Below are positions 1 through 39,993 of a DNA stretch of 39,993 nucleotides, one piece after another. Under the pieces are notes generated by a model that worked only from the letters and a program-made list of their open reading frames with translations, was not told where the DNA came from and did not search any database. Source of the stretch: an uncultured Atribacterota bacterium. GTDB lineage: Bacteria > Atribacterota > Phoenicimicrobiia > Phoenicimicrobiales > Phoenicimicrobiaceae. The stretch's first letter is position 1. Each line of letters starts with the position of its first letter. The DNA lies in assembly GCA_964567215.1 (NCBI GenBank), contig CAZMLS010000005.1:1-39993 (forward strand). The letters are read 5' to 3'. The position numbers and the translations under genes were made by a program.

Positions 1-127
1 AAGAGAGGAATAAAGAATAGGAGTCAGGAGTCAATCGGGCAATCGGTCAATTGGTCAATCGGTCAATTGGTAAATTGTATTATCTTAACTCGATACTATG
101 TACTCAATACTCGATACTAATTTAATT
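1..127. repeat. Composite short-period repeat block. It has a polypurine stretch, about six tandem 8-mers TCAATYGG (23-77), then a GATAC-rich segment (80-127) that is an inverted copy of part of the 113-bp unit at the window's 3' end.
   Basis: Read directly: tcaatcgg gcaatcgg tcaattgg tcaatcgg tcaattgg. The reverse complement of 80-127 (aattaaattagtatcgagtattgagtacatagtatcgagttaagataa) matches gattaaattagtatcaagtattgagtatatagtatcgagttaagataa at 39844-39891 in 45 of 48 positions by manual alignment. Confidence 0.8.
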
Positions 128-142
128 GTAAAATTAATTTAT

Positions 143-171
143 TTGAGAATTTTTTAAAATAATGGTATAGT
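143..171 (+). promoter_or_regulatory. Putative sigma-70-type promoter for hflKC (TTGAGA-17 nt-TATAGT, with TG at the extended -10 position)
   Basis: TTGAGA at 143-148, TGgTATAGT at 163-171, 17-nt spacer, about 35 nt upstream of the hflK ATG. AT-rich DNA gives chance matches. Confidence 0.35.
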
Positions 172-207
172 TTTACCACAAAATACTATCAAAGGAGGAA
201 ATTTTAA

Positions 208-1227
208 ATGTCGGATAATTTTAATGAAGAAAAAGAAAAAATTATTAACTTTACTGAAAATATACCAAAATTCCTATTTGGCAAAGGCATTTTTGGCGGG
301 TTTTTAATTATTATTTTAATTCTTTATCTTGCTACTGGAATTTTTATTGTTGCTCCGGATGAGCAAGGTGTCGTTAAAAGATTTGGGAAATTTTCACGTC
401 TTGAAAGCCCTGGTCTTAATTATCATTTTCCTTACCCTATTGAAACAGTAATTACCCCGGCCGTTACTCAGGTAAAAAGAATAGAAATTGGTTTTCGTAC
501 TGTTGGTTCCGGCTCATCCACACGTTACCAGGAAGTTTCTAATGAAGCTTTAATGCTAACCGGTGATGAAAATATTGTGAGCGCAGATGCAATTGTGCAA
601 TATAAGATAAAGGACCCGGTAAGTTATCTGTTTAATATCATTCTGCCGGAACAAACGGTAAAAAGCGCCGCGGAAGCTGCTTTAAGACAGGTTGTCGGTG
701 AAAGAAAAATAGATGAAGCACTTACCGTTGGGAAGTATGAAATCCAAGAGGAGACAATGAAATTACTTCAATCACTTTTGGATTCTTATGAAGCCGGTAT
801 CCTGATTGTTGCGGTTCAACTACAGGATGTCAATCCTCCCAAAGAAGTGCAGGCAGCTTTTAAAGATGTGGCAAGTGCAAAAGAGGATAAAAGCAGATAT
901 ATTAATCAAGCGCAAGGCTATAAAAATGATATTATCCCTAAAGCTCGCGGAGAAGCAGTGAAGATGACCAAAGAGGCGGAAGCTTACAAAATTGAAAGAA
1001 TAAAAAAATCCGAAGGCGAAATAGCAAGGTTTAATAAAATTTTAGAAGAATATAAAAATGGAGAATATGTTACCAAAGCTCGTATCTACCTGGAAACCAT
1101 GGAAGAGATACTGCCCAACATGAATAAAGTCATTGTTGACTTAGACAGTAACCAATCCTTAGTTAACCTTCTACCTCTGGGCGATATTCCGCTTCTCAAT
1201 GCTTCTTCTAAGGAGGTAACTAAATAA
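208..1227 (+). CDS. hflK: HflK-like SPFH/band-7 membrane protease modulator
   Basis: N-terminal TM helix (FGGFLIIILILYLATGIFIV) followed by an SPFH domain (VSADAIVQYKIKDP, ILIVAVQLQDVNPPKEV) and a coiled-coil tail. GGAGG lies 9 nt upstream of the ATG. The stop overlaps the hflC start (TAATG). Confidence 0.85.
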   Translation: MSDNFNEEKEKIINFTENIPKFLFGKGIFGGFLIIILILYLATGIFIVAPDEQGVVKRFGKFSRLESPGLNYHFPYPIETVITPAVTQVKRIEIGFRTVGSGSSTRYQEVSNEALMLTGDENIVSADAIVQYKIKDPVSYLFNIILPEQTVKSAAEAALRQVVGERKIDEALTVGKYEIQEETMKLLQSLLDSYEAGILIVAVQLQDVNPPKEVQAAFKDVASAKEDKSRYINQAQGYKNDIIPKARGEAVKMTKEAEAYKIERIKKSEGEIARFNKILEEYKNGEYVTKARIYLETMEEILPNMNKVIVDLDSNQSLVNLLPLGDIPLLNASSKEVTK

Positions 1228-2090
1228 TGAAAAAAGGAACAATAACCATAATCATTATCGTTTTAATCTTAATAGTGGCTAACCTTAGTTTATTTATCGT
1301 CGATGAAACCAGACAAGCCATCGTATTGCAATTAGGAAAACCTATAAAAGCTATTCAACAACCGGGTTTAAATTGGAAACTTCCCTTCATTCAGAATGTA
1401 GTGTACTTCGAAGATAGACTTTTGGTTTATGATGCCGCACCTACTGAAATTATCACCAAAGATAAAAAAACCTTGATTGTCGATAATTATGCCAGATGGA
1501 AAATAACTAATCCGTTAAGGTTTTTACAAACTGTTCGGGATTTAAATGGAGCACAGGCAAGATTGGACGATATTATTTATTCAGAGCTAAGGGTGGATCT
1601 TGGATTATTTAATATGACTGAAATCGTCTCTGAAATTAGAGAAGAAATTATGGAACGGGTTACCAAGATCAGCAATGAAAAATCAGCTACTTATGGCATA
1701 GAAATTGTAGATGTAAGAATAAAAAGAGTTGACCTTCCACCTGAAAATGAAAAATTTATTTTCGATAGAATGAAAGCGGAAAGAGAGCGGATTGCTAAAC
1801 AATACCGGGCGGAAGGCCAGGAGGAATCTGCCAAAATAATAGCTGAAACAGAAAAGGAAAAAACCATCATATTGGCAGAAGCCTACAAAACCGCTGAGAC
1901 AACAAGAGGTGAAGGAGATGCTGAAGCGGTTAAAATTTATGCTCAAAGCTTTAATAAAGATCCGGAATTCTACAAATTTCTACGGACTTTAGATGCATAC
2001 AAAATTACTTTTAAAGATAAGACAACAGCTTTGCTCTCGGCAGATTCTGAATTTTTAAAATACTTAAGCAATCCTTCAGTTAGCGAATAA
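1227..2090 (+). CDS. hflC: HflC-like SPFH/band-7 protein
   Basis: N-terminal TM helix and SPFH domain (IVDVRIKRVDLPPEN, AERERIAKQYRAEGQEE). AAGGAGG at 1211-1217. Coupled to hflK by a 1-nt overlap. Confidence 0.85.
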   Translation: MKKGTITIIIIVLILIVANLSLFIVDETRQAIVLQLGKPIKAIQQPGLNWKLPFIQNVVYFEDRLLVYDAAPTEIITKDKKTLIVDNYARWKITNPLRFLQTVRDLNGAQARLDDIIYSELRVDLGLFNMTEIVSEIREEIMERVTKISNEKSATYGIEIVDVRIKRVDLPPENEKFIFDRMKAERERIAKQYRAEGQEESAKIIAETEKEKTIILAEAYKTAETTRGEGDAEAVKIYAQSFNKDPEFYKFLRTLDAYKITFKDKTTALLSADSEFLKYLSNPSVSE

Positions 2091-2120
2091 TCTTTTCGTA
2101 TCAATAAAAAGAAAAGATTC

Positions 2121-2375: not shown

Positions 2376-4028
2376 TTAATATCCTAACTCGGTATTTACT
2401 TGATTTTCCGGTTCCTCTCCGCAATACACTTTCACGATATTATTAAAAACCTCTTTAATACTTTCTTCAAATGCTTTATCGCTATAACCTGCGGTATGCG
2501 GACTCATTATGATGTTCTTTAATTTTTGAAAATCGTATTTACCCGGCAATATTTTACTTTTTTCTTTGCTTGGATATTGATACCAGGCATCAATTGCTGC
2601 TCCTGCCAAATCATTGTTTTTTAAAGCTTCGTACAGATCATTTTCGTTAATTACACTACCCCGGGAAATATTTATAAGATATTTTCCATTCATTAACTGC
2701 AGTTCTTTTTTTGTAATCATTCCTTTTGTTTCTTCCGTTAAAGGGACAGAAACAACGAGAAAATCTGATTTTTTTATTACCTTTCTCAAATCTTTATTTT
2801 CTCCAAGAAACTCCAATATTTTCTTCTTTTTCAAATCTGTTTTATTTACTTTTCTTTTTATGGCAAATATTTTTATACCTAAAGCATACCCTATTTTTGC
2901 AATCTCCCACCCAATGGAACCTAATCCTATAATTCCCATATTTTTCCCGTGAAGTTGAATGCTAGGTTCCCGTGTAGAAAAACCATGCCATACTCCTTTT
3001 CTTAAATCATTGTCATTGCTTACAATATTTTTAGCCAAAGCAAGCATAAGCGCTATAGCGTGTTCTGCAACCGCATGTTTATTGGCATGAACATTACATA
3101 AACAAACATTCCGTCGATTTCTTAATAAATTAAAATCAATTTTATCAACACCGGTAAAAGGAACCTGGATCAATTTCAATATTTTTGCTTTTTCAAAGGT
3201 ATCTTCATTTTTTAAGTTTCCGATAATAACTTCCACTTCCGGAATGTATTTTTTAATATCCATCTCGTCATTTTTGTTCAGACTGATGAATTCAAGATTT
3301 AAATTGGTTTTTTTATTTAGTTCTGAAAACATTTTTATCCAAACTTGAGGCTTTACCATTTTACTTAAAATCAATATTTTCATTTTACGATTGTTCTTTG
3401 ATTTAATTTTTTTATTTTCAACCTTTTTTAAAAATTCTTTTATTGCGATTATATGTTTACAATCAATTTTTAATTTCTTTGCCTTATTTTTAAAATCAAG
3501 ACAATCGCATTTTAAAAGGTTTAAATCTACTCTATGTACATTTTCTGTTTCAAGATTTTTCACCGAGTAACAATTTTTTTCTTTTTTAACAATAAGTTCT
3601 TTTACCTTTGCTTTTCTTTTTCTAACTTCTTCCTTTAGTACCGCTTCCTTTGCTAAACCATCTGCAATTGAATTATTATCCCTGCTTTCCCAAATAAAAA
3701 ATATCTTCCCTTTAATCTTTTCACGTAATTTTTGAACTTTTATAAAAAGGGGTAGTATCTTTTTGTCTTTTACTTTATATTGTCCGTTTAACTGTTTTAC
3801 TACTAATTGGCTATCACAATATGCTGCTATTCTATCTACTCTTACATCCTTTATCTCCTCCAATCCTCGAATCAAAGCCCTATATTCAGCAATGTTATTT
3901 GTTCCGTGTCCAATATATTCGCTGATTTTTTTTACCAATACTTTATCTTTGTATATAACAATACCAATTCCCATACTTCCCGGATTCGGATAGCATGATC
4001 CATCCACTCTCATTAAAATATCAGACAT
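2376..4028 (-). CDS. Three-domain fusion protein: RNase HI-like (aa ~1-135), SWIM zinc finger (aa ~150-200) and a full-length D-isomer-specific 2-hydroxyacid dehydrogenase (aa ~216-550)
   Basis: RNase H DEDD set: D9 (RVDGS), E48 (IAEYRAL), D72 (YCDSQ), D123 (IADGLAKEA). SWIM CxCx13CxH: C174-D-C176...C190-K-H192. Dehydrogenase: GxGxxG at G368-G373 (GIIGLGSIG), R456 (NISRG), H511 (SPHTAG). Lys-rich linkers separate the domains. The ATG overlaps the stop of the upstream LOG-like gene (ATGTCTGA). Confidence 0.8.
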   Translation of the reverse strand: MSDILMRVDGSCYPNPGSMGIGIVIYKDKVLVKKISEYIGHGTNNIAEYRALIRGLEEIKDVRVDRIAAYCDSQLVVKQLNGQYKVKDKKILPLFIKVQKLREKIKGKIFFIWESRDNNSIADGLAKEAVLKEEVRKRKAKVKELIVKKEKNCYSVKNLETENVHRVDLNLLKCDCLDFKNKAKKLKIDCKHIIAIKEFLKKVENKKIKSKNNRKMKILILSKMVKPQVWIKMFSELNKKTNLNLEFISLNKNDEMDIKKYIPEVEVIIGNLKNEDTFEKAKILKLIQVPFTGVDKIDFNLLRNRRNVCLCNVHANKHAVAEHAIALMLALAKNIVSNDNDLRKGVWHGFSTREPSIQLHGKNMGIIGLGSIGWEIAKIGYALGIKIFAIKRKVNKTDLKKKKILEFLGENKDLRKVIKKSDFLVVSVPLTEETKGMITKKELQLMNGKYLINISRGSVINENDLYEALKNNDLAGAAIDAWYQYPSKEKSKILPGKYDFQKLKNIIMSPHTAGYSDKAFEESIKEVFNNIVKVYCGEEPENQVNTELGY

Positions 4029-4563: not shown

Positions 4564-4634
4564 ACTATTACGATATCCTAAAATGCAATTTAAAATTCTT
4601 CAAAAACAAAATATTTCTTTTGTTTACACTATTG

Positions 4635-4643
4635 TGTTATAAT
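4635..4643 (+). promoter_or_regulatory. Candidate extended -10 promoter element (TGtTATAAT) for the 242-aa ORF
   Basis: tgttataat read at 4635-4643, with tttaca 9 nt upstream. It would give a ~110-nt leader containing the small hairpin ctcaag-aaaaaa-cttgag. Confidence 0.3.
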
Positions 4644-4763
4644 TATAAATCAAAATATAGCTTTTGTCATATTAAAGAAAGAAAGTATCGAGTATTACCT
4701 CAAGAAAAAACTTGAGAAAAAATCTTAAAAATGTTTTTTTAAGAAACATGAGAGAAGAATAAT

Positions 4764-9900: not shown

Positions 9901-9919
9901 TTATATTTCCTCCTCTAAT

Positions 9920-9954
9920 TAGTCGTTAGTGAATAGTCAATAGTCGTTAGTATT
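9920..9954. repeat. Five tandem 7-mers TAGTSRW (tagtcgt tagtgaa tagtcaa tagtcgt tagtatt)
   Basis: Read directly. A near-identical array in the same orientation is at 32008-32042. Confidence 0.85.
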
Positions 9955-10242
9955 AAATACAAATTGCAAAATTATTCGCTTCCTTAGTTACCCAGTTACC
10001 TTGTTTAACAGTTGACTAATCAATTTTAGTCGTAAATTTCAAATACGAGTTCTTAAGTTGTAAGAGGGAATTAGTTGATACAGTAAAACAAAATAATCTT
10101 AATTCTTCAAGCGGTTAACCGTTAAACTGGCTAACCGCTTTCACGAGATACAAGATGGGAATTTGGTTCCTGATTTCTGATTCCTTCTTCCTCTTCACAC
10201 AAATCATACGTAATATTAATTAAGTTTCTAGCATCCTTTTTA

Positions 10243-10297
10243 TTCTAATTTTGAGCTTTGAATTATGGTTTTTCACTTTTCGTTTTTTTCGATTCCC
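10243..10297 (-). repeat. Copy of a dispersed ~40-55 bp A-rich element (CGAAAAAC...ATAATTYAAA..TCAAAAT), inverted relative to the other two copies
   Basis: The revcomp reads gggaatcgaaaaaaacgaaaagtgaaaaaccataattcaaagctcaaaattagaat. Compare 25011-25049 and 38296-38335. Confidence 0.65.
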
Positions 10298-10310
10298 TAT
10301 CATTTTTCTA

Positions 10311-10619: not shown

Positions 10620-10620
10620 A

Positions 10621-12678
<2,058 letters not shown>

Positions 12679-13083
12679 TTATGTATTAAGTATATAGAAA
12701 TTTATTTATAAATTCAACTTCAATATAAAAACAGTATGAAGTATATGGTATCAAGCATCAAGTAAAAAAAAAGAAAAACTAACTCTCTTCTTTTTATCCA
12801 AGTACCCATTAATATTTATACTAACCTTGAGACAATTTAATTAAGTGCTCGATATGATTTTACAAAAAACTTCTATTGCTTAAAAAAGAGCAGGCAAAAA
12901 ATCTGCTTTTTTTCTTCTTTGTTTCCTTAATCTCATTCTTTTCTCATTTACTTTTTAAATTTTCTCTGGACTATATTCTCGATACTTTCTTTAATTTTCA
13001 CTTTACAATATTTTAAAATAATGATAAACTTTCAATTGTATGTTTTATTATTATTTTAACAAAAATCTAGAAAGGAGTTTTAA

Positions 13084-13974
13084 ATGACTAACACGAAACA
13101 CAAAAAATTATTTCTTGCTTTACTCATTACAATATTTGTCTTTTTTCTGATTGCAATTTCCGGAATTGCCGCACAGGACACACCTTCGAATGAAACGGAG
13201 GCTACCACTGAAGCAGTAGTCCTCCCACCTGAAACAATCGTTGCTTCTTTTGGAAGTTTTACCATCACACTGGAAGACTTAAATGCAACACGGGATACTG
13301 TTCCTGCAGAATACAAAGCTCAACTAACTAAAAGCAGTATTCTTGATCAGATGATTTCAGAAAAATTATTGATTCAGGATGCAAAATCCAAAAATCTTGA
13401 AAATGATGAAAAAGTTGCCAAACAGATTAGTGATATGATCAATCAAATATTAGTTCAGGCATTAATTGAAAAAGAAGTGTTGAATACAGCTAAAGTCACC
13501 GACGAAGAAGCCACAGAATATTATAAAGATAACCAGGAAGAATTTACAGAAAAAGAGCAGGTCCATCTATTTAATATATTAGTAGAAACTGAAGAAGAAG
13601 CAAACTCTGTTTTGGAAGAATTAAATTCCGGTAAGGATTTTAGCGAAGTTGCCAAAGAAAAATCAACAGGTCCCAGCGCAGCTAATGGCGGAGATCTGGA
13701 TTACATTGCCAAAGGTTCAATTATTCCGGAAATCGAAGAAGTTGTTTTTACTTTGGAGATTGATAGTATAACCGATGTAATAAAAAGCGATTACGGTTTT
13801 CATATCTTAAAAATATCTGAAAAAAAACCGGAAGAGTTAAAATCCTTTGATGATGTTAGAGAAAGTATCATTCAAAATCTTTTACCCGAAAAACAAAAAT
13901 CAGCATTTGATAATCTCATAGAAGAATTAAAAAGTAAAACGGAAATCGAAATAAATGAAGAAGCATTAAGATAG
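13084..13974 (+). CDS. Secreted or membrane-anchored parvulin-type peptidyl-prolyl isomerase (PrsA/SurA-like)
   Basis: Signal/anchor KKLFLALLITIFVFFLIAISGIAA. PpiC rotamase domain (HLFNILV...GGDLDYIAKGSIIPEIEEVVF...DYGFHILKI). AAGGAG 7 nt upstream. Confidence 0.85.
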   Translation: MTNTKHKKLFLALLITIFVFFLIAISGIAAQDTPSNETEATTEAVVLPPETIVASFGSFTITLEDLNATRDTVPAEYKAQLTKSSILDQMISEKLLIQDAKSKNLENDEKVAKQISDMINQILVQALIEKEVLNTAKVTDEEATEYYKDNQEEFTEKEQVHLFNILVETEEEANSVLEELNSGKDFSEVAKEKSTGPSAANGGDLDYIAKGSIIPEIEEVVFTLEIDSITDVIKSDYGFHILKISEKKPEELKSFDDVRESIIQNLLPEKQKSAFDNLIEELKSKTEIEINEEALR

Positions 13975-14132
13975 TGCATAGTATTGAATAGTTGGTATTG
14001 AGTCAAGAAAGAGAAGGAACTGGCTTGAATTGCTAGAAAAAGCAGTATCGAGAAAAACAGTATCCAGGTATATGCTATCGAATCCAAGAAGGAAAAAATA
14101 AAAGGGAAAAAATAGGCTATAGCATCTGAAAT

Positions 14133-14168
14133 AAAAAAAGAGTACGAATTAATCGTACTCTTTTTTTA
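14133..14168. terminator. Bidirectional intrinsic terminator between convergent prsA-like gene and pcrA
   Basis: A7-agagtacga / attaa / tcgtactct-T7: a perfect 9-bp stem flanked by A and T runs. Confidence 0.85.
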
Positions 14169-14235
14169 TTAAGGTAAATATGTTTTGATTGTACCCCGAA
14201 AAAGGAAACGGAAGTGATACGCTATACGCTATCTA

Positions 14236-16389
14236 TTACACTTTCTCCAATGGAGCATAGTTCATTGATAATTTTTTTAAACCTGCTTTTTCAAAATCTA
14301 CTGTTAAAAAAACATCGTTTTCCGTTTCTTTTTTCTCCAGGATAATCCCGATTCCCCAATCTGCATGCCTGACTTGATCTCCTTTCGATACTTCTATAAT
14401 CTTCTCTCTCTTGTTAAATACCGGAATTTCCTCTATTTTATTAACATTGACTTTTTCCATGAGACATGCAGGAATTTCTTTATAGAACCGTGATATGCTA
14501 TTAAACAAGGTATTCCCGTTCAAACTTCTTCTCCAGGCATAAGTCAAATATAATCTTTCCATTGCACGGGTCATTCCAACATAACATAATCTCCTTTCTT
14601 CTTCTAATTCTTCATTACTGTGCACTGAACGTGCATGAGGGAAAATTCCCTCTTCGAACCCGGTAATAAATACAATGGGAAATTCTAAACCTTTGGCACT
14701 ATGTAAGGTCATTACAGTAACCACGTCTTCCTGTTTTTTATATAAATCAATATCACTTATTAACGCAACATATTCTAAAAACGCTCTCAGAGATTTATCT
14801 TCTCTGTTTTCTTCAAAATCTTGAATTGCAAAAACTAATTCTTTTATATTTTCAATTTTAGCTTCCGCTTTAAAATCATCTTCTTTTTTTAATTCCTTCT
14901 TATAGTCTATTTTTTTCAACAATATTATTAATAGTTCACTACCGGTCATTTTATCTCTTTCTTGATTTAATTCATCAATTAAAGAAGTAAATCTTTTTAT
15001 TTTCAATTGTCTATCGCTCGACAGTTTAGAGTCCTGTTTTGTTAAAAAATAGATTAAAGCCTGGTGATAATTCAAGTTATTTTCTTTTGCCAGGTACTCA
15101 ATTTTGGATAAAGTTACTTTACCTATTCCTAATTTTTCATTACTGAGAATTCTTAAAAAACTTACGCCATCTTTTTGGTCATAGATAAACCGCAAGTAGG
15201 CCAAGATATCCTTTATCTCTTTTCTCTCATAAAATCTTAAGCCTCCGACTACTTTAAATGGAATTCCCTGTTTATTAAATATTTCTTCAAAAGCTCTGGA
15301 TTGAGCATTGGTACGATATAAAATTGAAAAATCTTTAAAAGTCTTACCTTTTTCTTTCATTAATTTTAATATTTCCTGACCAACAAATTCTGCTTCATCA
15401 AGAGCGCTTGCTGACTCATAACATTTTATTTTTTCGCCTTCTTTTTTATCAGTCCATAAATCTTTGTCTTTGCGGTTTCTATTATGCCTAATTAATTTTG
15501 TTGCTCCCTCTAAAATAACTTTTGTTGAACGATAATTCTGTTCCAGTTTTATCAAATTGCTATCGGGGTAATCTTCTTCAAATTTCATAATATTACTTAA
15601 ATCTGCACCCCTGAACTTGTATATACTTTGATCGGGATCACCGACAACAAATAAATTATGATATTTACTTGAAAGCAGTCTTATAAAAGAATATTGAGCC
15701 CTATTGATATCCTGGTATTCGTCTACTAATACATGCATAAACTTGTTTTGGTATTTTTCTAGAATAGCGGGTTTCTCTTTAAATATTTTAACGGTTAACA
15801 ATATCAAGTCTCCAAAATCAAGAGCATTGTTTCTTTTCAACTCCTGCTGATATAATCTATAAATTTTTTCCACAATTTTTTTAAAAAAACCAAGTGCATT
15901 GTATTCAAAAGCTTCTACATCTTCCAAATTATTTTTTGCTTTATCAATAATTGAAGAAAATAAATTTGGACTATATCTTTTTGTTCCCAGATCCAGTTGT
16001 TTAATACACTTTCTAATCAAACTTAACTGGTCTCCTTTATCATATATAATAAAATTGTTATCATATCCTAAAGCTTCTATCTCATATCTTAATATCCGGG
16101 CACAAATTGAATGAAATGTTCCCATCCATAATCCTTTTATTTTTATATCACTATTTATGTCTTGATATAAATTATCAATTCTTGTCTTCATTTCATTGGC
16201 TGCTTTATTTGTAAAGGTTACTGCCAGAATATTGCCTGGATTTATCTTTTCTTCATGAATAAGATAGGCAACACGGTGAGTCAACACCTTTGTCTTTCCG
16301 CTTCCCGCTCCGGCAATGACCAATGTTGGATTATTTTTAGATTTTACTGCTTCCAACTGCCTGTTGTTAAGGTTATCCAGTATTTTCAT
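14236..16389 (-). CDS. pcrA: ATP-dependent DNA helicase PcrA/UvrD family
   Basis: Walker A AGAGSGKT, motif II VDEYQD, TLHSAKGLEFPIVFI, RRLCYVGMTRA. Confidence 0.95.
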   Translation of the reverse strand: MKILDNLNNRQLEAVKSKNNPTLVIAGAGSGKTKVLTHRVAYLIHEEKINPGNILAVTFTNKAANEMKTRIDNLYQDINSDIKIKGLWMGTFHSICARILRYEIEALGYDNNFIIYDKGDQLSLIRKCIKQLDLGTKRYSPNLFSSIIDKAKNNLEDVEAFEYNALGFFKKIVEKIYRLYQQELKRNNALDFGDLILLTVKIFKEKPAILEKYQNKFMHVLVDEYQDINRAQYSFIRLLSSKYHNLFVVGDPDQSIYKFRGADLSNIMKFEEDYPDSNLIKLEQNYRSTKVILEGATKLIRHNRNRKDKDLWTDKKEGEKIKCYESASALDEAEFVGQEILKLMKEKGKTFKDFSILYRTNAQSRAFEEIFNKQGIPFKVVGGLRFYERKEIKDILAYLRFIYDQKDGVSFLRILSNEKLGIGKVTLSKIEYLAKENNLNYHQALIYFLTKQDSKLSSDRQLKIKRFTSLIDELNQERDKMTGSELLIILLKKIDYKKELKKEDDFKAEAKIENIKELVFAIQDFEENREDKSLRAFLEYVALISDIDLYKKQEDVVTVMTLHSAKGLEFPIVFITGFEEGIFPHARSVHSNEELEEERRLCYVGMTRAMERLYLTYAWRRSLNGNTLFNSISRFYKEIPACLMEKVNVNKIEEIPVFNKREKIIEVSKGDQVRHADWGIGIILEKKETENDVFLTVDFEKAGLKKLSMNYAPLEKV

Positions 16390-16569
16390 ATTTAACTCTT
16401 ATACTCCTGTTTAATATTTTATATGTTGGTTAAACTAATTTATATAAAGATTATCAAAATATTATAAAAAACCTGTAATTTTATATGACCCTTTTTGCTT
16501 TTACCTTCCGCCCCTTCCGGGTACATAATACACAATGATTTATACCTAAAACAGTATGCACTAAACGGC

Positions 16570-16593
16570 AAGGGCACGATTCAACGTGCCCTT
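16570..16593 (+). terminator. GC-rich hairpin with a U-tract only on the plus strand (terminator-like, opposite in orientation to the flanking genes)
   Basis: aagggcacg / attcaa / cgtgccctt followed by ttattactatttt on the plus strand. On the minus strand the stem is followed by gccgtttag, with no U-tract. Confidence 0.5.
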
Positions 16594-16647
16594 TTATTAC
16601 TATTTTGCTTACTTTTCAGGTTGTAACCGTTAATAACAAAAATAATA

Positions 16648-18786: not shown

Positions 18787-19102
18787 CCATATTTTTTCAG
18801 CTTTTATTTTTGTCTACCTCCTTTTTAAATTATGTTTAAAGTAATTTTAGCACATTTTTTCAACAATTATCTACTATTGCTTTTAAAATACAGAAAAAAT
18901 ATTATTTTAATCTGTCAATTTCTTTCTTTTTTAACAATATTTAGCCATATAGAACGATATAACCTGTTTTTAAACATACTAATATAATTTAGGGAAAAAT
19001 AATATTTATAAAAATTATTTTAGAGAGTAGGGACCTCGGTTTGCATATCAATAAAAATTCAGATATTTAAAAATAATTATGTATCGTAATATTTATAAAC
19101 AT

Positions 19103-19918: not shown

Positions 19919-20166
19919 TCCTATCTCTTTCTTTTACTTTAAATTATACTTTTTAAATTGAATGACTTTCAACAATTTTTCATAAGCTCTATACCATTCT
20001 TCGGATCCTGCTCGTAATAAATAATTATAAGTATAATGTTTTTTCTAAGTATTGTCTTTTATTGCATTGAACCTTACGTATAATCTTATTAATATTTTTT
20101 ATTGACATTTTTAAGATTTTATCCATATCGCTTAAATAAAATATTTATCCGCTTGCTTTTAGGTTT

Positions 20167-22036: not shown

Positions 22037-23332
22037 TTAATCAAATACTCTTTTAAAGATAAAATCAATATGCTGTAGATAATTCCTGTAATCAAAACAA
22101 TCGTCTATCTCTTTGTTGCTTAAATATTTGCTCACTTCCGTATCTTTTAAGAGAAGTTCTTTAAAATCAGATTCACCCTGCCAGACCTGCATGGAAATTC
22201 CCTGTACTATCCGATAAGACTCTTCCCGGGAGAGACCTTTTGAAGCAAGCTTTAACATCACTTTCTGTGAAAAGATCAGACCTCTCGTCGTCATCAGGTT
22301 TTTTTTCATATTTTCAGGATAAACATTTAAATTTTCAATAAGTGCGGTAAATTTTTGCAATATGTAATCCATTAAAATATTACTATCCGGAATAATGATT
22401 CGCTCTGCTGAAGAATGAGAAATATCTCTCTCCTGCCATAAATTTACATTTTCCATAGCTGCCATTGAATTAGCTCTTATTACACGTGAAAGACCGCATA
22501 TCCTTTCACAGATGATTGGATTCCTTTTGTGAGGCATTGCAGACGAACCCTTCTGCCCGACAGCAAATTGTTCTTCTGTTTCATATATTTCTGTTCTCTG
22601 CATGCCTCTAATTTCAGTAGAAAATTTTTCCAGAGAACTGGCAATGATTGCAAGTATAGTTAAATAAAAAGCGTGTCTGTCTCTTTGGATAATTTGATTA
22701 GATACTTTTGCCGGCTTTAAATTTAATTTTGAACAGATATATTCTTCAACGGAAGGTTCGATGTGGGCAAAAGTTCCCACTGCTCCGGAAATTTTACCAT
22801 AGCAAATTTCTTCTCTGGCTCTTTTCATTCTTTCCAGATTTCTCTCCATTTCGGTAAACCATATAGCCATTTTGAACCCGAAAGTAATGGGTTCAGCGTG
22901 GACACCATGCGTTCTACCCATCATAACCGTGTATTTATGTTCTAATGCCTTTTTTTTAATTACTTTAATAACATTTTCAAGATCTTCTATAATGATTTCT
23001 GCAGATTCTTTTAATCTGACGGCCAATGAAGTATCTAATACATCTGAAGAAGTTAATCCTTGATGAAAAGATCTTGAATATTTTCCCAAATTTTCTCCTA
23101 CCGCCGTAGTAAATGCCAATACATCGTGTCGAGTAACCTTTTCAATCTCTTGAATACGTCTGATAGAATATTTTGCATTTTTTCTGATGTGCCTAATGCC
23201 TTCTTCATCAATTTTACCTGATTTATGTAATGCTTCACATGCTAATAATTCAACCTGAAGCCAGGTCCTATACTTATTTTCTTCTTCCCATATTTTTTTC
23301 ATTTTTGGAAAAGAATATCGTTTTATCATCAT
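22037..23332 (-). CDS. purB: Adenylosuccinate lyase
   Basis: Fumarate-lyase signature GSSAMPHKRNP. The GTG at 23338 lies inside the AGGAG SD (23342-23338), so the ATG at 23332 (or 23329) is preferred. Confidence 0.93.
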   Translation of the reverse strand: MMIKRYSFPKMKKIWEEENKYRTWLQVELLACEALHKSGKIDEEGIRHIRKNAKYSIRRIQEIEKVTRHDVLAFTTAVGENLGKYSRSFHQGLTSSDVLDTSLAVRLKESAEIIIEDLENVIKVIKKKALEHKYTVMMGRTHGVHAEPITFGFKMAIWFTEMERNLERMKRAREEICYGKISGAVGTFAHIEPSVEEYICSKLNLKPAKVSNQIIQRDRHAFYLTILAIIASSLEKFSTEIRGMQRTEIYETEEQFAVGQKGSSAMPHKRNPIICERICGLSRVIRANSMAAMENVNLWQERDISHSSAERIIIPDSNILMDYILQKFTALIENLNVYPENMKKNLMTTRGLIFSQKVMLKLASKGLSREESYRIVQGISMQVWQGESDFKELLLKDTEVSKYLSNKEIDDCFDYRNYLQHIDFIFKRVFD

Positions 23333-23355
23333 GTTCACTCCTAATAACTAATTAT

Positions 23356-23435
23356 CCAATTTACCAATTATCCAATTAACCAATTATCCAATTAACCAAT
23401 TTACCAATTAACCAATTTACCAATTATCCAATTTA
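23356..23435. repeat. Ten perfectly phased tandem 8-mers CCAATTWW
   Basis: ccaattta ccaattat ccaattaa ccaattat ccaattaa ccaattta ccaattaa ccaattta ccaattat ccaattta. Each CC start was verified at 23356 + 8n. Confidence 0.95.
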
Positions 23436-23580
23436 AGATAAAGATTAAGATTAATTAACCCATTGGTTAATTAAATTAGTTAGCTAATTAGCCGGTTAGA
23501 TGATTAAGATTAAAACCAGATAATTTAGTTAATGGTTAGCTGACCAAACAGTCTATCAATCTCTTTATATTTTTCTTTCC

Positions 23581-23625
23581 TAATTGGTCAATTGGCGAAT
23601 CGGTTAATTGGTCAATTGACCAATT
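23581..23625. repeat. About five tandem 8-mers in the opposite orientation (NNAATTGG type), ending in a 20-bp perfect palindrome
   Basis: taattggt caattggc gaatcggt taattggt caattgac. aattggtcaattgaccaatt (23606-23625) is its own reverse complement. Confidence 0.9.
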
Positions 23626-23628
23626 TTT

Positions 23629-24924: not shown

Positions 24925-25010
24925 AAAAAATTACCTGCCTTTTCTTTGATATTTTAATCACTTCAATTAATTTATTATACATGCTTCTTATCGTATTAAA
25001 CTTAAAGTTT

Positions 25011-25049
25011 AAAGCGAAAAACGAAAAACTATAATTTAAAATTCAAAAT
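25011..25049 (+). repeat. Copy of the dispersed A-rich element (aaagcgaaaaacgaaaaactataatttaaaattcaaaat)
   Basis: Shares aaagcgaaaaac and ataatttaaaatt[c/t]aaaat with 38296-38335. Related in inverse orientation to 10243-10297. Confidence 0.7.
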
Positions 25050-25140
25050 ATTTAAAACCAACCATGGTTTTTAGTGTATAAGCCAAATTTATCTTTCACC
25101 CCTGGATTCCCCCATTCGTGGGAATGACAGTTGAGAGTTT

Positions 25141-25459
25141 AATTTTTCATTTTTCTCGATACTCGATACTATTTTTTCTTCTGTCTTCTTCCTTCTCTTT
25201 CCTTAACTAGCTAACCAACTAACCAGCTAACTAATTCTATATAAACGATACTATATACTGTTTTTCTCTCCCACATTTATTCCCGCATCCTCACTAAATA
25301 CCATATACTAAATACTATATACTGTCTTCTTTTTCCCCACGATTCAAACCTGCATCTTCTCTCTTGTAATTACATACCCGATACTGATTTTCTTTCCTAC
25401 AATTCTTCCCACATCCCATCTTGGACTATATACTCAATACTGTATACTATATACTGATT
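25141..25459. repeat. Composite spacer: (TCGATAC)n, a polypyrimidine run, (CTAACNR)n, then three degenerate ~61-66-bp units, each a GATAC/ATACT heptamer run plus a C-rich core
   Basis: ctcgatactcgatact (25155-25170). taactagctaaccaactaaccagctaactaa (25205-25233). Cores cccacatttattcccgcatcc (25269-), cccacgattcaaacctgcatc (25335-), cctacaattcttcccacatcc (25396-). Confidence 0.75.
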
Positions 25460-27007: not shown

Positions 27008-27288
27008 AAATAAAATCACCCCGGTTTTTTAATAGCTTTTTTAAATTTTACTCTTTTTGACATGTTGCAAGAAAAAAATTACAGTTCATATTATATCATA
27101 TCTTCATATATTAGCTATATTTATTTAAATTTTATATTTTTTTTAAAAAAAAGAAGGATTTTTGTGTTCATATATAGTATATTATTATTATAATATAGTT
27201 TAGTTTGAAAAATTATGTTTAAAATAAGAAATTGATGTCTAATAACATAGAAATATTCTCCCAATTTAATATAGAAACCTGTATGAAG

Positions 27289-27470
27289 ACAGGAGGAGAA
27301 ATCTTTTCTTTATTGAAAAGGGGCCGAAGGTGTACGATGTATAATACATTTAAACTCTCAGGCAAAAGGACTCCTGTTGGACAGAACTCTGGAAAGTTTT
27401 TTAATAAACACCGAAGGGGTAATTTCTATCATCAACTGAAAGAAAAATCTCTCAGGTATAAAGACAGAGT
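27289..27470 (+). promoter_or_regulatory. Tandem glycine riboswitch (two aptamers)
   Basis: Aptamer 1: P1 acaggag...ctcctgt (27289-27377) with ggagaa, gccgaaggtg and ctctcaggcaaaaggac. Aptamer 2: P1 actctg...cagagt (27386-27470) with ctggaaag, caccgaaggggtaa and ctctcaggtataaagac. The layout matches the Bacillus subtilis gcvT leader. Confidence 0.93.
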
Positions 27471-27511
27471 AGGAATACTAAATCCATTCCTTCTTTGTCT
27501 TTTTTATTTTT
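27461..27511 (+). terminator. Riboswitch expression-platform terminator (glycine ON switch)
   Basis: aagacagagtaggaat / actaaatcc / attccttctttgtctt: 16 positions with 1 mismatch and 1 G-U, followed by tttttatttttt. The left arm overlaps the 3' strand of aptamer-2 P1. Confidence 0.85.
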
Positions 27512-27618
27512 AATATAAAAAAGATTTAATGGAATAAGAAAGGAGTTGACTGCAATATATCATAAAATATTCTTTTTTTATTAATAATATTTAAATTAAT
27601 CTATTGGAGGAAATATTA

Positions 27619-32005: not shown

Positions 32006-32007
32006 AT

Positions 32008-32042
32008 TAGTCGTTAGTGATTAGTGAATAGTCGTTAGTAAA
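32008..32042. repeat. Five tandem 7-mers TAGTSRW (tagtcgt tagtgat tagtgaa tagtcgt tagtaaa)
   Basis: Read directly. Same family and orientation as 9920-9954. Confidence 0.85.
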
Positions 32043-32074
32043 GAAAATACCAAGAATTAATAACAATATAATTT

Positions 32075-32110
32075 AATTGGCTAATTTACTAATTTACCAA
32101 TTAGCCAATT
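32075..32110. repeat. 12-bp perfect inverted repeat of CCAATT-family words (aattggctaatt ... aattagccaatt)
   Basis: Arms at 32075-32086 and 32099-32110, with the 12-nt loop tactaatttacc. Confidence 0.85.
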
Positions 32111-32307
32111 AAATAGTAAAAAAATGCAAATAAATTCATTAATTATTAGCTAATTATAAAAAAGGAGGTGGTCAATCATCAAATAGAATATTATTGATAA
32201 CGGGAGGTGAAGAAATACAAATAAAAATTATTTTTATTATCTTTTTATCTAACTTATTAAACGTATTTTAATTTGAAAAATATTTATAAATTGAAAGGAG
32301 ATTTATA

Positions 32308-36999: not shown

Positions 37000-37041
37000 G
37001 TTTAACAGCCTCCTTGAATATTTTAATATTTTTTAAACTAA

Positions 37042-37068
37042 TTAGCACTCTTAGCATGAGAGTGCTAA
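37042..37068. promoter_or_regulatory. CIRCE operator (HrcA binding site)
   Basis: TTAGCACTC-ttagcatga-GAGTGCTAA is an exact match to the TTAGCACTC-N9-GAGTGCTAA consensus. It lies 43 nt upstream of the groES ATG. Confidence 0.95.
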
Positions 37069-37081
37069 AATTACCTTATAT

Positions 37082-37110
37082 ATCTTATATAAACTTCTTT
37101 AGAAAAGCAA
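37082..37110 (-). promoter_or_regulatory. Putative sigma-A promoter of groES-groEL (TTGCTT-17 nt-TAAGAT)
   Basis: On the minus strand, -35 is at 37110-37105 and -10 at 37087-37082. CIRCE begins about 13 nt downstream of the -10, the usual arrangement. Confidence 0.55.
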
Positions 37111-37194
37111 ACCTTATCATACTCGTTTTTAGGCGATTATTTAACTCTATCCTTTATTATTAATGATAATACTTCATTTCTCTACCAATTACTA

Positions 37195-38211
37195 CTATTT
37201 CATCGTTAATGGTAGGCGTGATACGGCATCTAAATTTAATGATGATATTTTATTATTTCTTAGTTTATAATAACCGGCAGATGCTACCATCACCGCGTTG
37301 TCAGTGCAAAGTTGAGGTGAAGGGTAAAAAACTTCAATATCATACATTTTTGCTCTTTTCTTTATATTTTTTCTTAAATAAAGATTTGCTGCTACTCCCC
37401 CAGCCAATGCAATCTTATTAACCTTTAATTTTAAAGCTGCTTTTAAAGTTTTTTCAGTCAATACGTCAACAACAGCTTGCTGAAAAGAAGCTAATATATC
37501 ATATTTCGGAATTTCTTTGTTTTCCTCTTTTAATTTATTTACATAATATATAACCGCAGTTTTAAGACCACTAAAACTAAAGTCAAAATTTTTTTTATTT
37601 AAAAGGGGTCGGGGAAAATTTATAGCTGAAGGATTCCCGTTACCAGATAATTTTTCAATAACAGGTCCTCCGGGATAACCCAAATTTAAATATTTTGAAA
37701 TTTTATCAAATACCTCTCCCGCTGCATCGTCTTTGGTTTGACCCAAAATATTATAATCCCAATAATCATTTATGTGCACCAAAGAAGTATGCCCTCCGGA
37801 AACAATAAGACAAATAATTGGAGGTTTAAGCTCTCTATGTTCTAAAAAATTAGAATATATATGGGCTTCCAAATGATTTATTCCTATAAGAGGAATTTTC
37901 CTGACAAAGGCAATTGACTTTGCTACAGTTAGCCCAACCAGCAATGAACCGATTAACCCTGGTCCATAGGTAACGGCTATGCCGGAAAGTTGATCTAGCT
38001 TTACTCCTGATTCATTTAAAGCTTGATCAATCACCGGAATAATATATTCCATATGCTTTCTCGAAGCAATTTCCGGAACAACTCCTCCATATTTATTATG
38101 TATTTTAATTTGAGATGAAACAATATTTGATATAATTTTTCTACCTTTTTCTACAATAGCTGCAGCTGTTTCATCGCAGGAAGTTTCAATTCCCATTATT
38201 AATTCAGACAT
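37195..38211 (-). CDS. tsaD: tRNA N6-adenosine threonylcarbamoyltransferase
   Basis: GIETSCDETAAAI, NHLEAHI, LIVSGGHT, GVAAN. Confidence 0.95.
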   Translation of the reverse strand: MSELIMGIETSCDETAAAIVEKGRKIISNIVSSQIKIHNKYGGVVPEIASRKHMEYIIPVIDQALNESGVKLDQLSGIAVTYGPGLIGSLLVGLTVAKSIAFVRKIPLIGINHLEAHIYSNFLEHRELKPPIICLIVSGGHTSLVHINDYWDYNILGQTKDDAAGEVFDKISKYLNLGYPGGPVIEKLSGNGNPSAINFPRPLLNKKNFDFSFSGLKTAVIYYVNKLKEENKEIPKYDILASFQQAVVDVLTEKTLKAALKLKVNKIALAGGVAANLYLRKNIKKRAKMYDIEVFYPSPQLCTDNAVMVASAGYYKLRNNKISSLNLDAVSRLPLTMK

Positions 38212-38295
38212 ACATTTTTTCCTTTCAATAAAATTAAATATAGCATATATTGCTTTGTATATATTAATAGTATAAATTATAAAAGCTAAAAACGT

Positions 38296-38335
38296 AAAGC
38301 GAAAAACTCAAAATCATAATTTAAAATTTAAAATT
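38296..38335 (+). repeat. Copy of the dispersed A-rich element (aaagcgaaaaactcaaaatcataatttaaaatttaaaat)
   Basis: See 25011-25049. The blocks aaagcgaaaaac and ataatttaaaattNaaaat are shared. Confidence 0.7.
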
Positions 38336-38509
38336 AAGTAGAAAATATTATTCTCGTTTTATTATATCTTATTAGTTGTTTGCCCCATGTATCCCATGCT
38401 TTGCATCTTATAAATTATTTTCTTTTTCTCTATCTTTTTTTTAACTTATATATTACATACCAATAGACAGGCGAGACGCCTTTCCTGCGGGGTTGGTGAT
38501 TTCTATACG

Positions 38510-39217
38510 TTAAACGCTTTTATTCTTTTTTTCCCATATAATTTCTGCTTCAGATTTTCTCATGTAAAATGGAGATATGGAATAAATATTTTCTACTTTT
38601 CCTTTTTTAATTTTTTCCAAGCCTATGAGAGCCACATTGGATGCTTTTAAAATTGAAAGTGTCGGATGTATAAATATTGCCCGAGAACCCATTGTGTCTT
38701 TTATCCTGCTTTGGTACTTTAACGTTCCTTCCCCCAGGAAAATAATATTTTCTTGAACATTCTCTATCCTGCTTAATAATTTTTCTATGGATTCACATTG
38801 ATAATCAATCATTTTAGATAATTGATCTCCTCCCCGATATAGCGCGAAATACACCTCTCCTTTCCTTGCATCCAAAACGGGACATATAATAGCAGGTATT
38901 TTCGCTACATTACAAACCAGGACATCTAGTGTGATAACACCCGCTACAGGAATAGATGCGGCATAAGATAATCCTTTGGCAACACCTAAACCAACGCGAA
39001 GCCCGGTAAAAGAGCCTGGTCCAATAGTAATTGCAATTCCATTAATATCCTGTATTCCCATATTAATATTCGTTAACATTTCTTCAATTGCAGGAAGCAA
39101 AATAGAAGAATGTTTTTTTATTAAACCATTAATAATGTATTCAATCATGATATCTTCATCTTCTATTATACTTAAGTTACAATATCTGGAAGATGTATCA
39201 ATTCCCAATATTTTCAT
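38510..39217 (-). CDS. tsaB: tRNA threonylcarbamoyladenosine biosynthesis protein TsaB
   Basis: MKILGIDTSS, GPGSFTGLRVG. 4-nt overlap with tsaE. Confidence 0.9.
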   Translation of the reverse strand: MKILGIDTSSRYCNLSIIEDEDIMIEYIINGLIKKHSSILLPAIEEMLTNINMGIQDINGIAITIGPGSFTGLRVGLGVAKGLSYAASIPVAGVITLDVLVCNVAKIPAIICPVLDARKGEVYFALYRGGDQLSKMIDYQCESIEKLLSRIENVQENIIFLGEGTLKYQSRIKDTMGSRAIFIHPTLSILKASNVALIGLEKIKKGKVENIYSISPFYMRKSEAEIIWEKKNKSV

Positions 39218-39675
39218 CTTTTTTTTAACTCCTTTATTAGCTCAACAAATCGAGAACCTTTTGAAATAAAACGAATTTTTCTTTCCTTGAAATCAATGAA
39301 AGTAATGACAATTTTTAAATAATCTCCTGGAATAAATTCCTCTATTTTTTCTGCCCATTCAACAATGGTAAGGCCTTTTCCATAAAAATATTCCTCATAC
39401 CCTAAATTAATTATTTCATCATAATTTTTCAAACGAAAAAGGTCAAAATGATAAATGGGCATTTCGCCCTGATATTCATTAATTATAGTAAAAGAAGGAC
39501 TGTTTACGTAACCTTTTACTTTCAATTCTTCAGCTATTCCCTGGGTAAGACAAGTTTTTCCGGCTCCTAATTCACCAAAAAATAATATAATATCTCCAGG
39601 TTTAATTAATTTTGCAACTTTCTTCCCTATTTTTTTTGTCTCTTCAGGATTTTTAGTAATGATAGTTAAATTCAT
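39214..39675 (-). CDS. tsaE: tRNA threonylcarbamoyladenosine biosynthesis ATPase TsaE
   Basis: P-loop GELGAGKT, SPSFTIINEY, HFDLFRL. Confidence 0.9.
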   Translation of the reverse strand: MNLTIITKNPEETKKIGKKVAKLIKPGDIILFFGELGAGKTCLTQGIAEELKVKGYVNSPSFTIINEYQGEMPIYHFDLFRLKNYDEIINLGYEEYFYGKGLTIVEWAEKIEEFIPGDYLKIVITFIDFKERKIRFISKGSRFVELIKELKKR

Positions 39676-39697
39676 TTTAAATTATTCACCGATTTTT

Positions 39698-39993
39698 CAA
39701 TTAGCCAATTTACCAATTTACCGATTGACCCATTAAATTAGTATCAAGTATTGAGTATATAGTATCGAGTTAAGATAATTCAAAGAAAGAAATAAGATAA
39801 TTCAATTTACCAATTTACCAATTTACCAATTCGCCGATTGACCGATTAAATTAGTATCAAGTATTGAGTATATAGTATCGAGTTAAGATAATTCAAAGAA
39901 AGAAATAAGATAATTCAATTTACCAATTTACCAATTTACCAATTCGCCGATTGACCGATTAAATTAGTATCAAGTATTGAGTATATAGTATCG
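39698..39993. repeat. Tandem array of a 113-bp unit: a partial leading copy, two identical full copies (39732-39844 and 39845-39957) and a partial copy cut by the window edge
   Basis: attaaattagtatcaag recurs at 39732, 39845 and 39958, a period of 113. The two full copies read identically base for base. The unit holds a GATAC-heptamer segment, a taagataattcaa x2 segment and (CAATTNRC)5. Confidence 0.92.

Follow-up and report, generated by a model that had tools for sequence, protein, structure and literature searches.

The 39,993-nucleotide stretch analyzed here (positions 1-39,993 of contig CAZMLS010000005.1; hereafter the window) comes from an uncultured bacterium of the Atribacterota, a poorly studied subsurface phylum. 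It has a G+C content of 32% and is a piece of bacterial chromosome with ordinary housekeeping genes: hflKC; gatC, followed after a 410-bp spacer by gatAB; ligA, pcrA and ilvE; purB, purA and guaA; gcvH-PA-PB-T behind a tandem glycine riboswitch; agcS and ald; groESL; and tsaEBD. No tRNA genes were found in the window. This analysis concerns the degenerate tandem arrays of 7- and 8-nt units that occupy many of the spacers between these genes. PurA has hundreds of relatives at 72-81% identity, all named ones belonging to Candidatus Atribacteria, among them relatives at 72-75% identity, and the gene order of the window is conserved on the contigs of these relatives. Look-ups with the exact PurA and GatC sequences retrieved no record for either. 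A scan of species-representative genomes with PurA gave best matches of <=55% identity (Gemella and others), and these loci served as negative controls.

Tandem arrays in the spacers of the window

A first-pass annotation of the window had described nine spacers built from 7-8 bp modules, with coordinates that correspond exactly to gaps between open reading frames (ORFs). Tandem Repeats Finder placed period-7/8 arrays where that annotation had located them: at 30-77, 9918-9955, 23345-23433 (11 copies), 23582-23618, 25155-25170, 25211-25231, 25293-25323, 25425-25455, 32006-32039, 32074-32102 and 39698-39993 (a 113-bp composite unit in 2.6 copies). Compared with dinucleotide shuffles, self-matches of 5-mers in intergenic DNA were in excess only at lags of 7, 8, 14, 16, 21 and 24 nt (z = 9.6, 15.9, 8.7, 15.7, 10.7 and 6.3, respectively), while the coding DNA of the window showed no excess at lags 7 and 8 in this test. 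The word ACCAATT was ~10-fold enriched in intergenic over coding DNA.

Analyzed individually, seven of the nine spacers were significantly periodic (p <= 0.01; 1-207, 9901-10310, 13975-14235, 23339-23628, 24925-25459, 32006-32307 and 39676-39993). Periodicity was borderline in 12655-13083 (p = 0.056) and not significant in 38212-38509, which carries just an A/T-rich CGAAAAA / AAATTTA module. The claim that nearly every long spacer is filled in this way was too broad. The proportion is about half, with seven further spacers of >=190 bp being array-free (2091-2375, 4564-4763, 16390-16647, 18787-19102, 19919-20166, 27020-27603 and 37000-37194), and the statement that all other junctions are tight or overlapping was overstated, since not all of them are tight.

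The units are 7 or 8 nt long and consist of a conserved core of 3-5 nt with a variable remainder. They fall into the families TAGTNNN, AGTATNN, TAGCGTN, TCGTATC, CAGRAGN, CGAAAAA, CCAATTNN and GTTAGYTG. As annotated earlier, word families are common to several spacers and present in both orientations, and several arrays lie inside probable operons (gatC-gatA, purA-purB, guaA-purA and gcvT-agcS).

The ~600-bp fba-hflK spacer showed zero substitutions between the window and 8 independent ENA and JGI assemblies, contrary to the assembly artefact that the annotation had allowed for. The nine assemblies differed by a 16-bp indel, corresponding to two 8-mer units inside the array, and by a 24-bp AT-rich indel near fba. 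With two units of difference in the array and no substitutions in its flanks, this comparison is direct evidence that whole-unit change in the arrays outpaces mutation of the flanks. Thus, arrays gain and lose whole units, and in addition composite modules recur at several loci. In the composite unit, an 8-mer array is followed by the linker ATTATCTTA, four ACTNNNT heptamers and AATTTAAT. The features at 19-77 and 78-126 together form one copy, 87-94% complementary to 39793-39896, so that the two ends of the window are inverted composite copies, with 2.6 tandem copies at the right end. Both are oriented alike relative to the downstream gene (hflK and tsaE, respectively), and in the same species this module also precedes fxsA and a yjeF-family gene.

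Upstream of tsaE, other assemblies of the species contain one composite copy plus other modules (loci compared: window 39676-39993; L041 6235-6672; L042 9456-10000; L045 3639-4546; L048 604-1217). Contigs with an identical TsaE protein have differing upstream neighbours, namely alr, a TP_methylase gene or an rve integrase / IS fragment, and the switch between neighbours falls inside the heptamer/octamer composite. The cause is either genuine recombination among dispersed copies or chimeric assembly, and contigs are thus broken or recombined by the repeats. In practical terms, the arrays break and scramble Atribacterota metagenome assemblies, with contigs ending in arrays.

Orientation relative to reading frames and distribution

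The gatA leader array (9918-9955) and the gcvT trailer array (32006-32042) belong to the same family, in opposite orientation. A metagenome search for their sequence TTAGTGAATAGTCNNTAGT returned at least 120 contigs (767 kb; median G+C 0.35), of whose family the gatA leader array is a canonical member; counts from this search refer to the matches listed. Among 129 distinct occurrences, placement was non-random: 54 were in ACTA-sense just upstream of a start codon (median distance 35 nt) and 34 in TAGT-sense just past a stop codon (median 12 nt), while 29 exceptions lay at a median of ~150 nt from the nearest gene. In the alignments, trailers have the architecture stop codon, 0-5 nt, (TTAGTCG)1-2 TTAGTGA ATAGTCG TTAGT, and leaders the architecture (CTTGYAT)n TTGTATTTAAW ACTAACG... 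ACTATTC ACTAACG ACTAAT, 3-10 nt, AGGAGG as Shine-Dalgarno sequence (SD), start codon.

Across ~750 genes, phased ACT outnumbered phased AGT by 62 to 9 within 70 nt upstream of starts, and AGT outnumbered ACT by 72 to 8 after stops. A pattern-independent polarity test considered heptamer arrays without the searched pattern within 45 nt of an ORF end. Among the matches listed, the ratio of G>C to C>G arrays was 53:8 after stops and 5:30 before starts (Fisher p = 1.2e-12), and the same test on 11 loci gathered independently gave p = 0.0024. The heptamer arrays sit immediately beside stops and SD sites and obey a mirror rule: an array 0-5 nt past a stop has the C-poor strand (TAGTNNN) in sense, and one just before an SD has the G-poor complement (ACTANNN) in sense. 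In geometric terms, the 5' to 3' direction of the C-poor strand always points away from the ORF that it adjoins, whether the genes flanking the spacer are co-directional, convergent (as at 13975-14235) or divergent (as at fba-hflK). Both orientations do occur, as annotated, but the choice is not arbitrary, being fixed for heptamers relative to the adjacent ORF end. We know of no earlier description of an ORF-anchored mirror orientation for repeats of this kind.

The two forms differ in composition. Leader arrays have a G content of 0.10 and contain 1.1 start codons per 100 nt in sense, compared with 2.9 in antisense. Trailer arrays have a C content of 0.11, and 57 of 103 carry stop codons in all three frames in sense, compared with 10 in antisense.

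The annotation had suggested that inverted arrays could form long RNA stem-loops, similar to repetitive extragenic palindromic (REP) elements. This is borne out for a minority of spacers and not for most. Whole-spacer folds were strongly structured for 23339-23628 (z = -7) and 32006-32307 (z = -4.4), and unstructured for 1-207, 9901-10310, 24925-25459, 38212-38509 and 39676-end. The purA-purB hairpin is formed by 23345-23433 with 23582-23625 (44-nt arms, 80% complementary; fold z = -7, end-pairing z = -7.2). When the first 90 nt were compared with the last 90 nt in 50 Atribacterota spacers and in controls, end-to-end pairing was significant in 3 of the 50, which equals the control rate, and the median z of 0.08 was like that of the controls; hairpins are therefore not a general role of the arrays. 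Hairpins made of arrays with different words were found at purA-purB in L059 (z = -7.4) and L058 (z = -2.9) and at guaA-purA in L057 (z = -7.5). Their recurrence at purA-purB or the adjacent junction suggests selection for pairing there. In view of the mixed fold z-scores and the control-like pairing rate, we rejected the whole-spacer hairpin as a general function. We also rejected a bracketing of single genes by arrays that pair between the 5' and 3' untranslated regions, for which the association was weak (odds ratio 2.5, p = 0.02) and probably confounded by lineage.

The array load differs between Atribacterota lineages. Self-matches at lags 7 and 8 per kb of intergenic DNA were 15.5 and 21.3 in the window, 22.6 and 9.7 in L057, 10.5 and 16.2 in L058, 29.5 and 35.9 in L059 (an NCBI Atribacteria metagenome-assembled genome), 13.3 and 8.1 in L040, 8.4 and 2.7 in L038 and 4.9 and 1.8 in L036, with ~2.5 and ~2.5 in the AT-rich Gemella controls. 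L036 and L037, the closest other species sampled (PurA 81% identical), have almost no 7/8-nt arrays (lags 7 and 8 at background) despite spacers of equal length (~220-280 bp); the array load therefore varies sharply between related lineages. At syntenic Atribacterota loci, arrays persist at the same junctions although their words differ. The position 3-5 nt past the guaA stop, for example, is occupied by AGTATNN in the window, TAGCGAA / TAGTGAA in L038, TCGTATC in L040 and L057, TAGTGTT in L058 and ATAGCGT in L059. Word families are nonetheless common to different lineages and loci: the TTAGTCG / TTAGTGA / ATAGTCG array occurs in the gatA leader and gcvT trailer of the window and in L038, L040, L058 and L059.

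In the 767 kb from the metagenome search, there were 365 intergenic arrays with 7-nt units and 79 with 8-nt units among the matches listed, and none of the remaining periods between 4 and 12 had more than 9. Of the 120 contigs, 16 had a G+C content above 45% (up to 64%), and on such contigs the AT-rich TAGTNNN arrays begin at the stop codon itself. One contig of 60% G+C encodes a ClpP identical to a Candidatus Kaiserbacteria protein, with an array that begins at the clpP stop. A BLAST search against plasmids found a (TTAGTCR) x9.9 array on a plasmid of the cyanobacterium Gloeothece verrucosa PCC 7822. It begins at the stop of cytochrome oxidase subunit I (ctaD), ends 38 nt before subunit III and gives a match of 82% over 50 nt, with the same placement after a stop. 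To our knowledge, neither such arrays in Atribacterota nor the sharing of array words across phyla have been described before.

Note that some flavobacterial control loci (Kaistella / Weeksellaceae) also contain clean intergenic heptamer arrays (L019 1824-1859, L021 3601-3630, L014 8133-8159). In these, (TCAACCA)x5 precedes start codons by 2-6 nt and (GGTATCG/GGTATAG)x4 follows a stop at a distance of 4 nt, in orientations that fit the mirror rule of the Atribacterota arrays. Heptamer arrays may thus be more widespread than Atribacterota and cyanobacteria.

Relation to known repeats and possible functions

The annotation had recognized no named family in these modules. A named precedent exists in the heptamers of the short tandemly repeated repetitive (STRR) sequences, known in cyanobacteria since 1990 (Mazel et al. 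1990), originally in heterocystous strains, and without an accepted function. STRRs are described as 7-bp repeats of unknown function, capable of forming a hairpin between hupS and hupL, with proposed roles in transcript stability or translational coupling (PMC2670836). The arrays analyzed here match STRRs in the structural features tested, except for the host phylum, the extra 8-nt class and the ordered composite units. Like STRRs, they are degenerate tandem arrays of 7-nt units from a few word families at many sites. They are confined to non-coding DNA and dispersed over 7-8 separate spacers of the window and at least 120 metagenome contigs. Several array-bearing spacers lie inside probable operons, and some form hairpins (purA-purB, z = -7; 3 of 50 spacers). 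One word family appears to be shared, in a comparison that covered (TTAGTCR)n, at the cox subunit I stop of Gloeothece PCC 7822, rather than the classical STRR1-3 words; in word and placement alike, this Gloeothece array looks like a cyanobacterial STRR of the classical type. Unlike STRRs, the arrays here reside in Atribacterota rather than in a cyanobacterium, include an equally prominent 8-nt class (CCAATTNN, GTTAGYTG) and are joined into ordered 113-bp composite units. STRR-like arrays are abundant in Atribacterota, apparently even with the same TTAGTCR/TAGTGAA words, and present on a contig of the candidate phyla radiation (Kaiserbacteria).

Other repeat systems are less similar. With REP elements and bacterial interspersed mosaic elements the arrays share a mosaic structure, a dispersed intergenic location, often in operons and past stops, and a proposed role in mRNA stabilization. 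However, REPs are imperfect palindromes of 20-40 nt, whereas the arrays are direct tandem repeats of 7-8 nt, most of them lacking a pairing partner. No gene of the REP-associated tyrosine transposase type (IS200/IS605-like) was present among the 30 predicted window proteins, which were scanned with NCBIfam. BOX elements of Streptococcus pneumoniae and Correia elements of Neisseria are likewise small, modular intergenic repeats in which the number of internal subunits varies. Transcribed together with their neighbours, they can create hairpins, promoters or processing sites. In contrast to the arrays, their subunits measure tens of bases and they have defined ends or terminal inverted repeats; we found no sequence similarity and no Rfam matches. 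As in simple-sequence contingency loci (phase variation), unit number differs between strains, but the arrays flank housekeeping genes, lie outside ORFs and the -35/-10 spacer and are degenerate rather than perfect. Clustered regularly interspaced short palindromic repeats (CRISPR) had rightly been excluded, as they consist of 24-48 nt repeats with unique spacers, whereas the units here are 7-8 nt long and follow head to tail without spacers. In the Rfam search of the modules that the annotation had called for, the arrays had no match at the gathering threshold or at E <= 1, and a phage collection gave no match.

We hold with moderate confidence that the spacers are built from STRR-type short tandem repeats whose function is most likely exerted at the RNA level. 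Replication slippage would generate the arrays, and recombination or gene conversion would carry them to other loci. The arrays would be transcribed as 3' trailers, 5' leaders or intercistronic RNA, and selection at the levels of RNA and translation would filter their orientation. In the leader form, G is nearly absent, start codons are few and nothing mimics an SD, so that it could serve as an unstructured landing zone. The trailer form is C-poor and rich in UAG/UGA in all three frames. A trailer-type and a leader-type array of one family in the same spacer would produce a long hairpin joining the stop to the next SD, as predicted for purA-purB, which is the exception. The composition data given above (G of leaders, C of trailers, start and stop codon counts) fit an orientation filter at the RNA level. 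The position and orientation rule is directly testable and narrows the possible mechanisms.

Several observations weigh against this explanation. The mirror rule does not extend to the 8-mer families (p = 0.27 and 0.39). The argument for transcription is purely positional, from the adjacency of arrays to stops and SD sites, and the hflK arrays lie upstream of the best promoter-like site (143-171), so that they may be outside the hflK mRNA. The TCGTATC and CAGTTTT families lack stop codons. Because some families are stop-free and every frame is closed by stops in only ~55% of the trailers, a 'stop pad' cannot account for the rule in general, and with only 57 of 103 trailers qualifying we rejected the three-frame stop pad as single explanation. 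The few arrays near ORF ends on cyanobacterial plasmids (five in 200 kb from Gloeothece and Nostoc) have mixed orientations. Genes were called by a simple longest-ORF rule, a caveat that we count on this side as well. Finally, an orientation filter by itself leaves unexplained why three phyla, with genomes of 60% G+C among them, have the TAGTC core in common; this recurrence points to a sequence-specific reader or to horizontal spread.

One extension, which we consider tentative and rather unlikely, is a cis-acting code common to Atribacterota, Cyanobacteriota and Patescibacteria, in which conserved machinery reads the UAGU-type form at the ORF exit, with the G-poor complement as leader. The reader may be the ribosome or a release factor, an RNase or a termination factor. 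If true, this code would give cyanobacterial STRRs a function.

Equally unlikely, in our view, is that the arrays are positive cis-acting RNA signals for a sequence-specific factor that binds periodic motifs, either a ring of the HutP/TRAP type or a processing or terminating RNase. The orientation rule would then reflect where the factor must act on transcripts leaving the ORF. HutP sites have the published pattern (UAGNNNN)3, that is, UAG-N4 x3, and TRAP sites the pattern (G/U)AG-N2-3 x11. The TAGTNNN trailers resemble the former in presenting UAG at a 7-nt period, with at least three triplets 4 nt apart (e.g. 32006-32042). The strand rule is very strong, and the TAGTC/TAGTG core is found at period 7 in Atribacterota, a cyanobacterium and the Kaiserbacteria contig (60% G+C). 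However, HutP and TRAP sites are single regulatory leaders of one operon, in contrast to hundreds of sites at the 3' ends of unrelated genes, and many of the array families lack UAG. Many heptamer families (TAGCGTN, TCGTATC, AGTATNN, CAGTTTT) obey one rule, making a single reader protein unlikely, and an RNA-binding protein that reads the trailers would not bind the complementary leader form. Among the 30 window proteins, NCBIfam scans revealed no candidate protein and named no HutP or TRAP gene; the rest of the genome was not searched for these.

The arrays could alternatively act as DNA, which we regard as improbable: they would bind a nucleoid-associated protein or transcription factor, or serve near promoters as UP elements or insulator-like sequences, with unit number tuning expression. 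Consistent with this, the rule mirrors strands about the ORF and is no simple polarity of transcription, holding whether the genes beside a spacer are divergent, convergent or co-directional, the hflK arrays lie upstream of a predicted promoter and unit-number polymorphism exists. By arithmetic, three heptamers (21 bp) and four octamers (32 bp) are near whole helical turns. A double-stranded site, however, has no reason to begin at a stop codon or to end at an SD, and trailer arrays lie inside operons and, in L115, separate the stop from a GC-rich hairpin resembling a terminator. Overall there was no enrichment of promoter-like sites, and arrays as sigma-70 promoters were rejected, the TTGAAT-18-TATACT of the composite unit being only a 9/12 match.

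Slightly more doubtful still are decayed insertions resembling miniature inverted-repeat transposable elements (MITEs), one of the readings that the annotation had left open. Elements with terminal inverted repeats made of arrays would have inserted where a stop and an SD once lay close together, and this would account for both the tight abutment and the mirror orientation. Long array-filled spacers do alternate with tight junctions, the purA-purB spacers of L040 and the window are nested palindromes, and near-identical composite units occur at several loci, with contigs breaking inside them. Nevertheless, trailer and leader arrays in one spacer are not associated (odds ratio 1.4, not significant), the two ends being statistically independent, and paired ends were found in just 3 of 50 spacers. 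The 8 strains show unit indels only, without presence or absence of a whole element, and orthologous junctions retain arrays but not the words in them, a pattern to be expected if arrays turn over in place. Terminal inverted repeats were not seen, and inspection by eye, without a systematic search, showed no target-site duplications. Considering the unassociated ends and the lack of filled/empty polymorphism among the 8 strains, we rejected this candidate. Chance low complexity or an assembly artefact, which a genome of 32% G+C and a window ending inside repeats might bring to mind, is a negligible prospect given the z-scores of 10 to 16 that lags 7 and 8 alone reach over dinucleotide shuffles, the exact agreement of independent ENA and JGI assemblies and the absence of such a signal from the AT-rich Gemella controls.

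Array coordinates and further features of the window

Table 1. Arrays and modules in the window
Position	Strand	Feature	Remarks
19-77	+	AGGAGTC x2, then 8-mer array GTCAATYG x5.8	Upstream of hflK; site of the 16-bp two-unit strain indel
78-126	+	Linker TATTATCTTA, heptamers ACTCGAT ACTATGT ACTCAAT ACTCGAT ACT, then AATTTAAT	G-poor in hflK sense
9918-9955	-	gatA leader array, in sense ACTAACG ACTATTG ACTATTC ACTAACG ACTAAT, preceded by TTGCAATTTGTATTTAAT	Ends 3 nt before SD GAGGAGG
10109-10140	unassigned	8-mers GGTTAACC GTTAAACT GGCTAACC	CTAAC/GTTAG family
10245-10300	-	A-rich heptamer module CGAAAAA...AAAATTC	In sense after gatC stop
12731-12764	+	Heptamers AGTATGA AGTATAT GGTATCA AGCATCA	Divergent spacer of ligA and PPIase gene; periodicity borderline
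13972-14007	+	PPIase-gene trailer TAGTGCA TAGTATT GAATAGT TGGTATT GAGTC	Stop codon TAG is the start of the first unit
14215-14234	-	pcrA trailer, in sense TAGCGTA TAGCGTA TCAC	Begins 2 nt past stop
23345-23433	-	8-mer array x11.1, CCAATTWW (+ strand) / AATTGGWW (purB sense)	Abuts purB SD
23582-23625	-	Inverted 8-mer array x4.6	Begins 4-11 nt past purA stop; pairs with 23345-23433
25011-25060	+	CGAAAAA / AAAATTC heptamer module	~90 nt upstream of purA; T-rich in purA sense
25155-25455	-	guaA-purA spacer arrays: CTCGATA x2.3 (25155-25170), CTAACCAA x2.6 (25211-25231), heptamers (25293-25323, 25425-25455)	25425-25455 in guaA sense AGTATAT AGTATAC AGTATTG AGTATAT AGT, beginning 5 nt past guaA stop
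32006-32042	+	gcvT trailer ATTAGTCG TTAGTGA TTAGTGA ATAGTCG TTAGT	Begins 1 nt past stop
32074-32110	+	8-mers TAATTGGC TAATTTAC TAATTTAC CAATTAGC CAATT	
38283-38335	+	CGAAAAA / AAATTTA module	Upstream of tsaD; spacer without G/C-containing 7/8 periodicity
39692-39993	-	113-bp composite unit, 2.6 copies	Upstream of tsaE; runs off the window end

The CGAAAAA...AAAATTC module at 10245-10300 recurs at 25011-25060 and 38283-38335 and in L040 and L058. More generally, an A-rich composite module (AAAGCGAAAAACGAAAAAC...AAAATTCAAAAT) is conserved between lineages, at 25000-25060, 38270-38335 and 10245-10300 (reverse complement) of the window, at 11400-11460 and 11560-11610 of L040 and at 5976-6029 of L058. 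Read in sense, copies that follow stops are rich in A, and those ~90-110 nt ahead of starts (purA, tsaD) are rich in T. L040 has two copies in inverted orientation, which make up the inner layer of a nested palindrome. A small GC-rich hairpin module, GTAGGACAGGCG-TCYC-GCCTGTCTA, occurs in AT-rich surroundings in several spacers and lineages, including 38462-38500 of the window, the fba-hflK spacer of L049 (alignment columns ~295-335), L038 2295-2335, L119 and L128. It looks like a REP-like palindrome distinct from the tandem arrays.

For purB (23326-23345), the ATG at 23332 is a likelier start than the GTG at 23338 chosen by the ORF tool; the GTG overlaps the SD (AGGAG). With the start at 23332, the 8-mer array stops 1-2 nt from the SD. 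In the spacer between the convergent hflC and RNase H-fusion genes, a perfect 18-19-bp hairpin at 2120-2160 resembles a bidirectional terminator and accounts for the strong fold z-score of the array-free spacer 2091-2375. The fusion gene itself (2376-4028, minus strand) is a single ORF of 550 aa with an N-terminal RNase H domain and a C-terminal D-2-hydroxyacid dehydrogenase domain; the same fusion is called in other assemblies of the species (L049, both Pfam domains).

The sole Rfam match in the window was the tandem glycine riboswitch, with two aptamers at 27279-27471 (plus strand) upstream of gcvH-gcvPA-gcvPB-gcvT, as expected for that operon. Its presence explains why the 584-bp spacer 27020-27603 is long yet array-free. 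A sub-threshold match (E = 0.0004) to n00280, 'C. difficile sRNA included into helicase gene', at 14530-14631 (minus strand) lies inside pcrA and most likely reflects conserved helicase coding sequence rather than a small RNA.

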